A stretch of DNA of 63,993 nt, the filler included, from Porpidia crustulata (taxonomy: Eukaryota): the NCBI GenBank assembly GCA_964255105.1. It is 10 parts of 10 records of this genome, joined end to end, with 100 filler letters (N's around TTAATTAATTAA, not from the genome) between each part and the next. Parts side by side here need not be neighbours in the genome. Positions count along the whole stretch, not along the records: positions 19,330 to 25,665 come from CAXUWE010001567.1; 9 more parts are not named here. One strand, written 5' to 3'. Made by a program: the position numbers and the translations under genes. The first letter of the stretch is position 1. Each line of letters opens with the position of its first letter. Shown piece after piece: positions 19,230 through 25,765 of the stretch. Below the pieces are notes generated by a model. It worked only from the letters and a program-made list of their open reading frames with translations. It searched no databases and had not been told where the DNA came from.

Positions 19230-19329
19230 NNNNNNNNNNNNNNNNNNNNNNNNNNNNNNNNNNNNNNNNNNNNTTAATTAATTAANNNNNNNNNNNNNNN
19301 NNNNNNNNNNNNNNNNNNNNNNNNNNNNN

Positions 19330-19622
19330 TGTGGGAGGCGTGGATGTGGGGGAAGGGGGGGTTTACAGCAAAGGCCCGCAACTGAGGTGTCGCGTTTGCG
19401 CACCAAATCTTTGAAGTACTCAGGGAATCGTTTGTGCTTGGAGACTCCGCTGATGGAATGGAGTAGGTCGATGTACAGTGGCGAGAGATCGGCGCCGATG
19501 GTCGGAGTCGTTGTAGCTGTCGCGCCTTGAGGGTTGCACGACGTATAACCGCTGCCACAAGCCTGCGCGTTTCCACCAACTACCAGGGCCGCAGTAGCGA
19601 GCAGAACGAAGAGTAATTGCAT
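19330..19622 (-). CDS. Secreted Cys-containing protein, N-terminal part (truncated)
   Basis: Signal peptide MQLLFVLLATAALVVGGNA, CGSGYTSC, dibasic KR sites, LCC then an intron donor. Confidence 0.65.
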
Positions 19623-20050
19623 CGTTGCAGATATTTGAAAAGAGTGTATTCGGAGCTTCGTGATGCTCTACAATGCCGCTGTGAATTGATCTGAAGGAGT
19701 GACGACGTTAAAGACCGAAGGCCGCGATGAAGATTGCGGAGGATTTTTTATGGCGCGTGCCCCTCTACTATTATTATTGTAAAGGATGCATCAGCGCGCT
19801 TTGACTGCGCAGTGAGGTGCAGGGGAGGTGGGTACGGAGTACTTCCATCGATCACAACACTCCAGTGAGTCGGGAGGGTTTCGGATGACGAGGTCTCTTG
19901 TATGTCTTGGTGTTGTAGACATCGTGTCTGTAGTTATTTTTTGCCTTCATCATTCGTCAGGTCCTTGGGCTGCTTGTGCTGTGTCGATATCTTCTTTTCT
20001 GCTGGATGTGTCGGCGTACAGCCGCTAAATAGGTAAAATTATTCGGTGTA

Positions 20051-20124
20051 ACCCCTCAACGGGCCATGCATCATAGGGTTAGGGTTATATCTACTAGTTT
20101 GATTCGGGTGGCCCGTTGAGGGGT
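20051..20124. mobile_element. Small inverted-repeat element / MITE relic with internal telomeric repeats
   Basis: Perfect 16-bp IR (ACCCCTCAACGGGCCA 20051-20066 / TGGCCCGTTGAGGGGT 20109-20124) enclosing TAGGGTTAGGGTTA. Confidence 0.6.
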
Positions 20125-22171
20125 GAGAGCGAGAAATCTAGGACATGAGATCTCAGTCTTTGAGATACTTAGAATGCCTCAGACACTCAAATTCCCTGAA
20201 TACTTTCAGACTTTTTTTTACTTTACATCTGGAAATGAAATGCTACTGTTGTTGAAAGACATATCTTGTTGCAAAGCTGGTATCTGCCTTGTGTCTAGGA
20301 GTCCACTAACAGCCCAAGAGCTTCTAGGTTGAAAGGCGCCCAATACCTGAGATATAGCTTGACGCTCTACTGCTCTTGCTTTTACGACTTTGCAATGGGA
20401 AATATCTACAAGCTCAGTGGCTGTCATTCTCGCAATTTCCACATCACAACCATCCTACAATGTGAGAGGTAAAAGCTATTCTCCACAATAACTGTCTACC
20501 AAAAGTAACGCTATCGCTTCCACTGCAATCAACAATTCTGGCGCCTGCAAGATCAATCCCCAACGATGCACACTCGGGCACAAGCTTGGAAGTGTCTTGC
20601 ATATTACAGCATGGCAATTCCACAATCTGATCAGGCGGGACAGAGAGAAAGAGATTTAGTTTTGGGGCCCGATCTGACGCCTTTTCCTGGGAATGAAATG
20701 CCCGATGGCAATCGGTACACGTTTGATACGCAAGCTACTCTTGCCTACAATGGCAATAGCCAGTTGACACTATGATCCTGGGCCCATGGGAATTGAAACG
20801 CCACTTCAGCTGCACTGGGAAAGCCAGCCTTCGACTTTGAGGTATAGTGATCTACAGTGGGAATTCCCCGCACTGCAAACCCAAGGCCCGTGCTCCCGCT
20901 GAGGATGCATCAATCACCTGGGAGCTGCATATCTTGACGTTTTGTATCTGGATGAAATCCGCTTTCTTTTCATCGACCTTACAACAAGCTCTCTTATCAT
21001 GTCTTATCTTGACACCGTCCACAAGAATTACATCATAAAGCATGAGATGGCAGATGTCAGATCACACTCGAGGATCCCAATGGGGATCACAGGATCCCGT
21101 ACCCAACGATTGCCTTCACTAGCTGGCCGATCTAGTCAAAGCCGAGCCGCGTGTGGAGCCGTTCATTTAGCCTCGCATCGATGTTTGACGATGTATCGTT
21201 CCCTTCTTTCTCCTCATCGTCGCAAATATCTTTGGAACGTCCGTCTTTGATCGTTCCTTTCGATCGCCCTCATATCCAATCAAGAATGATTGTCGCTTGA
21301 TAGTATTGGAAGTGGCTTAGGGTCATAGCGTACCCTACGACCTGGGCTTGCCCATCACCTCCCTTCGGACATTAGTATACTTCTTGATCTTTGTTCGGTC
21401 CATCCTTGCATGACTGGTCAAGAAAATCTCCGCTCGAACCGGCCTCATCTCGACAACGGAGGCTCTTCCACCCAACAGGTGATCTCAGGTTTGCAGAAAC
21501 TGATTGGCTCGGCAATCTTGTACACTCGTTGATCTAGCTATGAGGAGTATGCCATGTGTGGTGCATTGGTCTAGCCATATGTGGTTCGTTTTGTACTGCA
21601 CAACCAAGGGATTTCCATGAACACTCTGACGTCTTTCTTTATAAGGTGCCCCAACAATATCCATGTCAAACGACAGGTAGCGTCTCATAGTAGTTCGAGT
21701 ACTATAATTACGCTCATCTGCTGCTCGAGGGAAAGCCATTACTCGTCACCATGGATGAGAGAGACCTTATCAGGTACGCGGTAGCTAGAGCTAAGAAATG
21801 CACGAAATCCACCCTTCAACTTGACGCGGTGTTATTTATCCAAGGCCAACGATTATATGTTTGTGCTGCTCCCATGGTCTCTATCTTGAAAGTATACCCA
21901 ATCCTTCCCTATATGGCCATTTGAGTAATCAATTATTCGTGATTACGTGGGATTTCTTACATAGACATGGCATTTTGCTGTGTCCTTCCTCACCGCCGTG
22001 CATTATAATCAAAGCTTAAGGGCTATTTATATTCAATATCTACCTCGTCACCTTCCGTCGCTTTCGAGAGCATTCCCCTTGTCATTTCTCATATCATACT
22101 AAGCATCTGACACCTCAATTAGTTATGAGGCCAGTGGCCGTTATTCTGCGTTGTCCTTTGAAGTTCTAGCC

Positions 22172-24667
22172 ATGTCGAAGCTGTCTCTTTTACTTACGAA
22201 TGTGACCCCATGGCTCGTTCTTGGGGTCCTGATGGTCGCTTTACTGCGTGCTGTATATGACTACTTTCTGTCTCCACTCGCAAAGCTTCCCTCCATCCAC
22301 TGGTCTGCAAGGTTGACCCGCGGGAATATTCTTTACACAAAATACTTTTCCAGCGTTCGGCATGCTCACTACAACGCCCACCTCAATCGTCAAGGTGACT
22401 GCGGCTTTCGGCCGATTCTCAGAACGGGCCCAGCCGAAGTATCGATCATGACTACAGATGGTGTTCAGACCGTGTTTGGTGGTGGTTTCGACAGACCACC
22501 TTGGTATGACGTTTTTTCAAACTTTGGGTCAGTTGCAACCATTTGTTTCTCGCTGCATTGCTTAACGTAAAACAGGAGCCAAAACATGTTCTCTATGGGA
22601 CCAAGACAGAGTCATGCTAAGCGGCGGCGAATTTTTGCTTCTGCTTATTCGAAAACATCGATCTCGCATTTCCATGTGCAAAACATAATAAAGACTCGAA
22701 CCGCAACGTTGCTTCGTTTCATCGATCAACAAATTAGTACCGAAGATTTCTCATTTGGCAAAAGTGGTCCACTCGTTATCCGCAATATGTTTCGAGCCCT
22801 GCAGGCCGACATATTCACTGCATTCGCATTTTCTGAAAAGGATGGCACATCTTTCCTGGAAAGACTGAAGAGTGGTGCAAACACAATAGAGGACCTCGGG
22901 ATGGAATCGATGGATCTTTGTCACGATGAGAAACGTGACCCGTTCTTCTTTTGGGAGAGCGAAACCCCATTTAAGCATATTGGTCGTTTTATCGTTGCGG
23001 AAGGGCCTGCTATTCACGCAAAGGCTCAACGATGGCTATCCGGGCTGATGGCGAAGTATGAATCAAAATTACAAGCTGAAGAAAAAAACAATCCCGATGA
23101 GGCATTGTCCGGCTTCAACTATAGTCCATATAGGAAGATGTTGACTTGGCGAAATCCAGACACGGGACGGCCATTGAGTTGGGTTGAAAGGGCTAGCGAG
23201 ATAATGGATCACTGTGGTTTGACACTCCAAATTTGCGTATATGATATACAACCCTCTAAAATTCCTTTTAGTAGCGGGACAAGACGCCGTACCGGCGGCT
23301 TTGGAATTCATGACCAGATCCCTAAGCGCCCATCCAGAAGTTCAGTCTAAGCTACGCCTTGAACTACTTACCTCGGTTCCACTTGACGCTCAGTATCGGA
23401 CCTTTGCTATGATCGACAATTTACCGTATCTCAACGCCGTAATCATGGAAAGTCTTCGATTAGTAGACACGATTTCTTCGTATCAGACTCGAGTGGTGCC
23501 TCCAGGAGGTTGCGTGATCTTGGGCTACTTCCTCCCCGCTGGCGTATGCTCCCTTCCCATTACTCCTTTAAATCAGCTACAAGTGGATTGATTGTTCCTG
23601 CATACTGAACCTCGGTGTACCTCTAGACCATCGTTTCTTCCCAACCACACCTCATCAATCGTCAATCTGATATCTTTCCTTCTCCGGAAACCTTTGATCC
23701 TTCCCGCTGGCTCGTCCCACGGGAGAGCTACCGTACCCTTGCGAAGAGCATGTGGACCTATTCTAGCGGCCCTCGAGGTTGTATCGGAAGAGAGCTGTCT
23801 CTAGCTAGTAAGTTTTCACGTACTGTAACCATCGTTATTATCGTGTCTAATGCAATATTTATTGTGGCAGTCATGAAGACTGTACTTGTGGACGTGTACA
23901 CTAGGTACACTACAAGACTCTTGAATGAAGACCGTGTAGAAAGAAGGCCGTGGGAGGGTGCAGATCGAATGACGGAATTACAATTTGAGTGCTTACTCGC
24001 TTGTGCAGAGGGCGAACACATTGAGAAACGGGGGTCAAGGACTCAAATGGTGCAAGACATGCCGTACGATGGCGCCAACGAAATGATGATTGAAACGTCC
24101 AGAAGACCTTCAATGTTCCAGACCAACGATATCGCTCCTGATATGACTGATAACGTGGGACGACGACCTTCTGTCTTTGCCCCGAATATTACTCACAACG
24201 AGATTTCCCACTTGTGTGGAAACAGCGACCGCCAGCCGTCATTGTTCTCTCCGGACTTCTCTTTGCTACAACCCCCAAAGAATGACGAGATGGGGAGGAG
24301 GACCTCATACTTCCCTCCAGACTGCGTCTACACGGAGCAAGACTCGCCGAAGCCTTCACCTCCGCCAACAATGCTACCAATCTGGGAAAATTACGGGAAT
24401 GCCAGTGCTCCAGCGCAGAGGAAGCCGTCACTCCTACCTTCCTTGATCGCAATGGGCCCGGCTTCGAAGAGGGTTGAACGTGTGGAGCGAGCAGTGCTAG
24501 CAGAAAAGGCGGATAACCTCCAAAAAGACGGACAAGCAGAAGAGCCGCAGCAACGACCAACGAAGGGGCCATTGGCGCGAGCCAAAAGACCTGCGTTGAT
24601 GCATCGGTCCACGGCTCCTGATCGTGTTGCGGGTGTGCTGGAGTTAGTCGGGCAGAGCGCCTTGTGA
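22172..24667 (+). CDS. Cytochrome P450, 5 exons, with a long disordered C-terminal extension
   Basis: N-terminal TM, K-helix ESLR, PERF-like FDPSRW, heme motif YSSGPRGCIG. Four GT-AG introns keep the frame; ~225 aa follow the P450 fold. Confidence 0.88.
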
Positions 24668-25363
24668 ACTATCTTCTTTGGGCAGGCCTAGCATAATGGG
24701 ATCGGCGGAGAAAAGTAACAATGTCTGTCTTTATTTGTTTGAATTGAAATCAATCATGCTATTTCCGAGGCTCTCAAAAGTCTTTCAAAGTATACATACA
24801 AGAAGAGTTGATGGCCAAATTTTTGCTGGAAGGTAGGGAGTTGGAGGCGGTTTTGTCATCTTATCTTGCAGCTATGAATAATACGGAAACTCGTACATGA
24901 AGAAACATATTAATTCTCGAAGAACCTTCAAGGAAACTGAATCCTTGAACAGGTGCGTTGAACCCTCCATCAAGTCGACACTTCCTTTCTTTCTTGCTGC
25001 ACATCCTCAAGTCTGTAACCAAGCGAGAAGCATCGAAAATAATCCTAACGGTCCTACCCTAAACATCATACCAATGTACATGAATTAACTACGGACAGGA
25101 CGCTCTATATTCTGTAATCGCGGGCTCTAACCCAATTCCGTTGCAACAAAACGTGTTTCGAGATTCGACAGACCGTCCGCTGCGCCTCTCCAGTCTGACA
25201 CTCGTCCGGGAACCCAGCTGAAGAGGCCTTAATATCCCAAAGTGTTTCCGCTAAACACCGTGCCCGCAACATACGACACTTACTCCCTCCCTCCCCATCG
25301 CTCTGTTTCGTCTTCCAAAGTCCCATCATCGTCCCCAATCCACCACCTCAACCCTCGCCCACC

Positions 25364-25665
25364 ATGCCAATCTCCAGCTCGCCTCCCACCATCTCGCTCC
25401 TCCTCGCCTCCCTCATCCTCCTTCTCTTCTCCACCGGCGTGACCGCGACTGCGTCCTGCTACTTCCCCAACGGAAAAGACCAAAACGCCGGCCAGCAGGC
25501 CGCAGAAGGCATCGCCTACATACCGTGCAACCCGCGCGCGAACAACAGCATGTGCTGCGCGCCCTGGGACACCTGCCGGCCCGACGGCCTCTGCCAAAGC
25601 TCCAACGACGGTAATACCTGGCGCGATAGCTGCACCGACCGCACCTGGCAAAGTCCCAGCTGCGT
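25364..25665 (+). CDS. Secreted or membrane Cys-rich protein (Mid2-like architecture), N-terminal part (truncated)
   Basis: Signal peptide, then CYFPNG...PC...SMCC...C..DGLC...RDSCTDRTWQSPSC. Confidence 0.75.
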
Positions 25666-25765
25666 NNNNNNNNNNNNNNNNNNNNNNNNNNNNNNNNNNN
25701 NNNNNNNNNTTAATTAATTAANNNNNNNNNNNNNNNNNNNNNNNNNNNNNNNNNNNNNNNNNNNN

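Follow-up and report, generated by a model that had tools for sequence, protein, structure and literature searches.

An atypical cytochrome P450 of Porpidia crustulata and other Lecanoromycetes with an optional, putatively regulatory C-terminal tail

Control of P450 enzymes is mostly transcriptional, and fungal P450s are known that are joined to folded catalytic domains, as in the CYP505 reductase fusion and the Ppo dioxygenase-P450 proteins. Control by phosphorylation has a reported precedent in CYP2B1, where, as Anandatheerthavarada et al. are said to have described in 1999, cAMP-dependent phosphorylation at Ser128 directs the location of the P450. In lichens, P450 families are reported to be expanded and largely uncharacterised (PMC9232553). 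Here a P450 gene of Porpidia crustulata is compared with its relatives in lichen genomes and metagenomes. The best reading of the sequence analysis is an atypical P450 with an optional, putatively regulatory tail, an architecture that is real, lineage-wide and apparently undescribed. The original prediction had not recognised it either, and no description of the family, or of any P450 tailed in this way, was found in the literature searched, which was largely open-access.

Gene model and P450 architecture

The window, that is the whole stretch of 63,993 nucleotides analysed, consists of separate contigs joined by linkers about every 6.4 kb (e.g. 19230-19329 and 25666-25765), so that genes across linkers are not neighbours; the contig that carries the gene spans only about 19330-25665. 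The predicted gene (22172-24667, plus strand) has five exons, four GT-AG introns and a single open frame closed by a TGA stop at 24667, 273 residues downstream of the heme Cys. Intron 2 ends in a tandem TAGTAG acceptor (window 23269-23274), so that a product of 747 or 748 aa is possible; the upstream AG agrees with the orthologues. Both exon 2 and the last exon have a single match in the genome, as expected of a single-copy gene. A contig from X1, a run of unrecorded type, covers 22103-25277 with zero differences, a match that may stem from the source sample and is not counted as independent support. The predicted features are as follows.

22172-22527, plus strand: exon 1, with the start codon and the N-terminal membrane anchor, aa 13-29 (22208-22258)
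22576-23216, plus strand: exon 2, helices C to H of the P450, including two family-specific stretches, FRALQADIFTAF and RDxFFFWESE
23272-23543, plus strand: exon 3 (acceptor 23271 or 23274, the first being orthologue-like), Pfam p450 with E 2.5e-16
within exon 3, plus strand: AGQDAV I-helix motif (ends 23291) without the conserved Thr; ExxR at 23448-23459
23627-23807, plus strand: exon 4, with the PSRW meander and, at 23759-23788, the heme-binding loop YSSGPRGCIG, Pfam p450
23871-23989, plus strand: first part of exon 5, completing helix L and the P450 fold with its last strands
23990-24667, plus strand: exon 5 continued, disordered C-terminal tail of 225 aa, ending at the TGA

The protein carries the hallmarks of the P450 superfamily, namely the heme-ligating Cys motif, ExxR, the meander and the P450 fold (Pfam PF00067 and predicted structure), and the predicted N-terminal anchor that marks class II microsomal enzymes (hydropathy peak 2.07). 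An AlphaFold model of the Puttea orthologue (P0270) shows a helix at residues 12-37 and a confident P450 fold with strands up to about residue 530, followed by pLDDT values <50 over residues 542-694. We read the predicted protein as a cytochrome P450 of ER type with an N-terminal anchor, from a family present in single copy.

The end of the fold can be placed from the orthologues without a tail, which stop just past the first part of exon 5, 5-14 residues beyond the matching strand; the fold boundary given in the original prediction is thus right. The in-frame tail of ~225 aa proposed there measures 225 aa. For the window's own last exon, no secondary structure was predicted past residue 43 from a shallow tail alignment. 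The tail has no Pfam family and no hydrophobic segment in the hydropathy profile and, given the standard microsomal topology, it would probably lie in the cytosol beside the catalytic domain. The ESM Atlas gave no usable match to the tail, and NCBIfam returned bacterial P450 models only, all below cutoff.

Motifs, conservation and selection in the C-terminal tail

Seven blocks stand out in the tail, five of them the motifs to which the original prediction had drawn attention.

23999-24031, plus strand: junction block AC-x-E-G-E-x-I-E-K-R with a conserved Cys, present in 11 of 14 distinct tails
24101-24118, plus strand: motif 1, RRPSMF; R-x-x-S-hydrophobic-F/Y is found here in several orthologues, and the Ser is lost in P0005
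24161-24178, plus strand: motif 2, RRPSVF; L014, P0006 and P0034 retain the Ser, which P0005 and most L007-group members have lost
24230-24247, plus strand: motif 3, RQPSLF, with a single basic residue
24296-24313, plus strand: motif 4, RRTSYF, poorly conserved
24419-24445, plus strand: motif 5, RKPSLLPSL, better conserved than the other four and present in 9 of 14 distinct tails
24563-24640, plus strand: terminal block, with the 14-3-3 mode-I-like core RPxLx[HRQ]xx[ST]xP at 24587-24619, followed by RVxGVL

All five motifs lie at the positions predicted (the fifth as RKPSLL from 24419), and the spacing of 20-23 aa claimed for the first four was measured as 20, 23 and 22 aa, with a further 41 aa to motif 5. 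Two parts of the description needed adjustment: the PKA consensus [RK][RK]x[ST]-hydrophobic fits four of the five motifs, since RQPSLF has one basic residue, and a tail called Pro/Ser-rich has a modest Pro plus Ser content of 19.6%. The terminal 14-3-3-like motif, fixed in position, and the I-helix without Thr had not been noted in the original prediction.

The density of these motifs was compared with chance and with other sequences of the same genome. None of 20,000 shuffles of the tail reached the observed motif counts. In a control set of 147 long ORFs (706 windows of 225 aa), no ORF held four consensus sites in one 225-aa window, 64 windows of similar composition held at most one site each, and the terminal motif was absent from all 706 windows; with the looser pattern [RK][RK]x[ST], five occurrences were reached by one of the 147 ORFs. 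The control ORFs richest in basophilic Ser motifs were L110:427-1377 (plus strand), L115:8975-9772 (minus strand) and L076:328-1464 (minus strand). Forty other P450 stretches were fetched from the genome, 30 of them with a heme motif, and none showed more than 100 in-frame residues after the Cys, although introns were left unspliced, so that some of these lengths are underestimated. Tandem duplication was considered as the origin of the motifs and rejected, as no convincing DNA repeat family emerged.

An exhaustive search recovered proteins that match the whole last exon, the best being P0005 (56% identical, E 8e-80), along with P0006, P0016 and others; a word-indexed search with the tail among longer proteins had found none in 2286 candidates. 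One of these proteins falls in a cluster that includes an NCBI model from Puttea exsequens, full-length at 694 aa with its tail, and tails are also present in the Protoblastenia and Letrouitia models. Among 22 metagenome loci, 12 are tailed (last exon 225-256 aa) and 10 are tail-less (42-48 aa), and the position of the last intron is identical in all 22; many of these loci are near-copies, and the set stands for roughly three lineages with the tail and three without.

Selection on the tail was estimated against four loci of the L007 group, at a dS of about 1.3, giving a dN/dS of 0.24-0.31 (upper bootstrap bound at most 0.46) for the tail vs 0.07-0.08 for the core; comparisons with L002 and L018 were saturated. 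In a neutral simulation over the same distance, 0 of 3000 tails remained free of stops. Together, a tail dN/dS below 0.5 and this simulation reject recent read-through after a lost stop. The existence of tail-less orthologues could be taken to favour an artefact, whether through the recent loss of a stop codon, an intron that escaped notice or an assembly error; this has become a very remote explanation, largely refuted by the frame that stays open under constraint over a saturating distance, by a conserved block just ahead of the stop in nine distinct tails and by a last exon that contains no GT(A/G)(A/C)G(T/C) or GT(A/G)xG donor. The analysis thus supports the tail as real coding sequence, conserved in orthologues and under purifying selection between lineages. 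The original prediction would have been undone by an unconserved read-through tail behind a fold at which orthologues stop; the tail is instead shared and selected, yet 10 of the 22 loci do stop after the fold.

Within six sequences of the L007 group the tail shows another regime, with 39 replacement and 11 silent changes and a pN/pS of 1.2 vs 0.28 for the core. To compare motifs more widely, 53 sequences with a recognisable fold end were gathered, of which 35 have tails of at least 100 aa that reduce to 14 distinct tails; the fold-end pattern missed P0001, P0002 and P0003, for which relatives stand in, and P0001 and P0002 are included in the tail alignment. At least one RRxS-hydrophobic site occurs in nine of the 14 distinct tails and none in five. 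The terminal motif is likewise present in nine and absent from five, and always lies 9-15 aa before the stop. Compared with L007, motif residues are kept above linkers (21/30 vs 61/159, p=0.0013), and across four pairwise comparisons the p value for motifs vs linkers ranged from 0.001 to 0.04. The closest homologue, P0005, has no canonical site, since motifs 1 and 2 are without their Ser there and motif 5 is short of one Arg; the L018 tail likewise has zero, most L007-group tails have one or two, and the window's protein, with four, has the most among distinct tails (others at most three). The pattern is one of short conserved islands among freely drifting linkers, with turnover of the candidate sites. 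The multisite PKA switch originally proposed therefore survives as a recurrence of basophilic Ser motifs and not as a conserved five-site set, and the conserved repeats with dN/dS below 1 that had been expected of orthologues hold for the ratio; the RRxS sites recur in nine of the 14 distinct tails but turn over.

These data also bear on another explanation, in which a disordered, quickly drifting tail would simply be tolerated, only the terminal block and motif 5, or one of them, would matter, for phosphorylation-independent docking or localisation, and the five-site cluster would be a lineage-specific accident. The absence of canonical sites in P0005 and L018, the within-group pN/pS and the tolerance of H, Q or R at -3 of the terminal block are all in keeping with such drift. 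On the other hand, RRxS-hydrophobic sites recur at matching positions in the distant tails P0270, P0236, P0080 and L002, and the site density of the window's tail was not seen in any control ORF. We regard drift as a possible but rather unlikely account.

Family distribution, gene neighbourhood and the I-helix

The named members of the family all come from lichen-forming Lecanoromycetes (Protoblastenia, Letrouitia, Lepraria, Lambiella, Physcia, Pleopsidium and Puttea) and span three subclasses of that class, which suggests a lichen-forming host for the gene as well. One member, P0163 from Physcia stellaris, bears the source name 'cell division control protein 45', an evident misannotation. Phylogenetic trees group the family as a single clade (100/100), in which tail-less members occupy two or more positions; the backbone is compatible with gain or loss of the tail in either order. 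No tail remnants were found behind the tail-less genes (best E 0.04, outside the 3' region). In two of five tail-less loci of one group (L003 and L017, near 5140) the heme Cys codon has become TGA, and the gene appears broken in that lineage, so it can evidently decay. Gene callers usually split or truncate the gene, which may be why the tail has gone unnoticed.

On the contig of the window, the gene has a divergent neighbour upstream:

19332-19622, minus strand: small protein, truncated at the contig end, that begins like a signal peptide and belongs to no Pfam family

This neighbour, with a Cys-rich N-terminus, is kept in 11 of the 22 loci, tailed and tail-less alike (e.g. L013:7-1067 and L006:689-1801), which points to orthology. 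Downstream, an ORF at 25365-25665 (plus strand) has a signal-peptide-like start and a Cys-rich segment, is cut by the contig end and has no Pfam family; no counterpart was found in the related loci. The tail-less second-group loci L019:7184-8666 and L020:6283-7661 are followed directly by an alpha/beta hydrolase gene. A scan of 27 neighbour ORFs, 25 of which were chosen out of 64 listed in flanks of at most 4 kb, detected no PKS, NRPS or terpene domains. Genes that we take to be Mia40- and Nup82-like were rejected as context because they lie on other contigs, beyond linkers.

The AGQDAV motif aligns with the I-helix AGYETT of CYP3A7, the acid being kept and the Thr replaced. Thr is missing from all 33 genuine I-helix matches in the family (23 QDA, 8 QDP, 1 QDS and 1 QEN; a 34th match was spurious), so that its members depart from canonical monooxygenases at this residue. 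In the loci and named models compared, QDA goes with a tail, except for two tailed members with QDS, whereas QDP, QDS or QEN goes with the absence of one; kinship may explain this pairing. Within a set of near-identical loci, L014 and L015 (near 4689) have QDS for QDA, which puts a hydroxyl back at the alcohol position.

QDA is the only part shared with the SRS4 consensus F(L/M)F(A/S)QDA(S/T)(S/T)S of the sterol C-22 desaturases; V-P-A follows in the lichen family. Elsewhere in the genome, a P450 at L033 (G000:C747:9200-10636) has FLFAAQDATSS, a near-complete SRS4 signature, and is probably the sterol C-22 desaturase, presumably Erg5 from this motif. A CYP61/CYP710 (Erg5) identity for the tailed P450 was rejected, given the incomplete SRS4 and an identity of 25% over 166 aa to this QDAT-type gene. 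The acid-alcohol pair is described as a mediator of oxygen activation in many P450s (PMC11842817); a Thr-to-Ala change in CYP101A1 is reported to turn hydroxylation into epoxidation, so that the chemistry is shifted and not abolished (PMC9112060), and QDA is given as the core of the SRS4 signature of the CYP710A C-22 desaturases, enzymes that are active (PMC9368853). The shared QDA is a hint at desaturation or substrate-assisted chemistry, and it is on this weaker ground that the enzyme might carry out desaturation or substrate-assisted oxidation in place of ordinary hydroxylation, a tentative suggestion to which we give somewhat less than an even chance.

Loss of the Thr could also be read as loss of function, the P450 domain being a poorly catalytic heme or ligand sensor with the tail as its signalling output. 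The family-wide absence of the residue, the single gene copy and the lack of cluster-type genes among the neighbours scanned would fit such a sensor; the activity of QDA-bearing desaturases and of the CYP101A1 mutant speaks against it, as do the tail-less orthologues, which share the same Thr-less helix. We consider a sensor decidedly improbable.

Putative regulation by the tail and comparison with known P450s

Leaning slightly in its favour, we read the tail as a cytosolic linear-motif module that would be phosphorylated by basophilic kinases, would recruit 14-3-3 at its terminal site and would tune an enzyme able to act without it. PKA would phosphorylate the RRxS sites and a CaMK/AMPK/MARK-type kinase the terminal Lx[RH]xxT site, which would then recruit a 14-3-3 dimer, probably paired with an RRxS site. 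The phosphorylated tail would tune enzyme stability, location or reductase access according to nutrient or hydration state; RRxS site number would turn over among species, with Porpidia crustulata as the extreme, and catalysis would need no tail. A Leu at -5 combined with a basic residue at -3 is a pattern suited to CaMK/AMPK/MARK-type kinases. The PKA consensus is given as RRXS/T (PMC9313097), and 14-3-3 mode I sites are described as a phosphorylated Ser or Thr preceded by a basic residue at -3 to -5, without Pro at +1 and frequently with Pro at +2, 14-3-3 docking on pairs of sites (PMC4495292). In the nine terminal blocks, Ser/Thr and Pro at +2 are invariant (9/9) and position -3 is Arg in one (P0236, the canonical residue), His in six and Gln in two, so that the match to 14-3-3 sites is imperfect. 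Two 14-3-3 loci are present in the genome. Weighing against regulation are the siteless tail of P0005, the pN/pS of 1.2 in the L007 group and the ten loci that do without a tail.

Alternatively, the terminal block could act as a latch that docks onto the P450 domain of its own protein, for autoinhibition or dimerisation, until phosphorylation releases it. Its fixed place at the far end of a long flexible linker and a conservation at least equal to that of the kinase motifs would fit such a latch, but no conserved structure was predicted in the (shallowly aligned) tail. When the Puttea P450 domain was modelled in complex with the last 50 residues of the same protein, the score was 0.01, which speaks neither for nor against docking. 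A latch is, in our view, unlikely. Also unlikely, and the most speculative reading, is that a lichen-specific P450, having lost the oxygen-activating Thr, is wired through its tail to kinase and 14-3-3 signalling, either as a heme-based sensor or scaffold or as an enzyme whose output of a signalling lipid or sterol is gated by phosphorylation, and would link the carbon or hydration state of the fungus to a function in symbiosis.

If the regulatory-module reading is true, a disordered tail dedicated to regulation and maintained by selection would add a new control mode for P450 enzymes, and the natural tailed and tail-less orthologues offer a ready comparison. The single copy, the spread over three subclasses and the atypical I-helix make the gene a candidate for a lichen-specific core function.

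The best solved match to the predicted fold of the Puttea protein is human CYP3A4 (Foldseek E 2e-16, TM 0.71 over the target), with which the lichen P450 is ~18% identical. It shares with microsomal class II P450s the N-terminal anchor and the ExxR, meander and heme-Cys motifs, and differs from CYP3A4 in lacking the I-helix Thr and in its 225 extra disordered residues. The nearest non-lichen P450s, from Apiospora (P0234/P0235) and Annulohypoxylon (P0244), are 28-36% identical, below the 40% identity at which the line for a CYP family is drawn; they are similar in the C-helix and K-helix regions, and their Atlas clusters are automatically named benzoate 4-monooxygenase-like. This outgroup has a canonical AGIDTT helix and no tail. 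With CYP710A/CYP61 (Erg5), the lichen family shares QDA at the acid-alcohol position, followed by V-P-A and not by S/T-S/T-S, and because a different outgroup is nearer, this likeness looks convergent. The phosphorylation site of CYP2B1 is a single one inside the fold, whereas the candidate sites of the lichen P450 are multiple and lie in an appended tail. In contrast to the CYP505 and Ppo fusions, what is appended here is a segment without a Pfam family, Atlas match or predicted fold.
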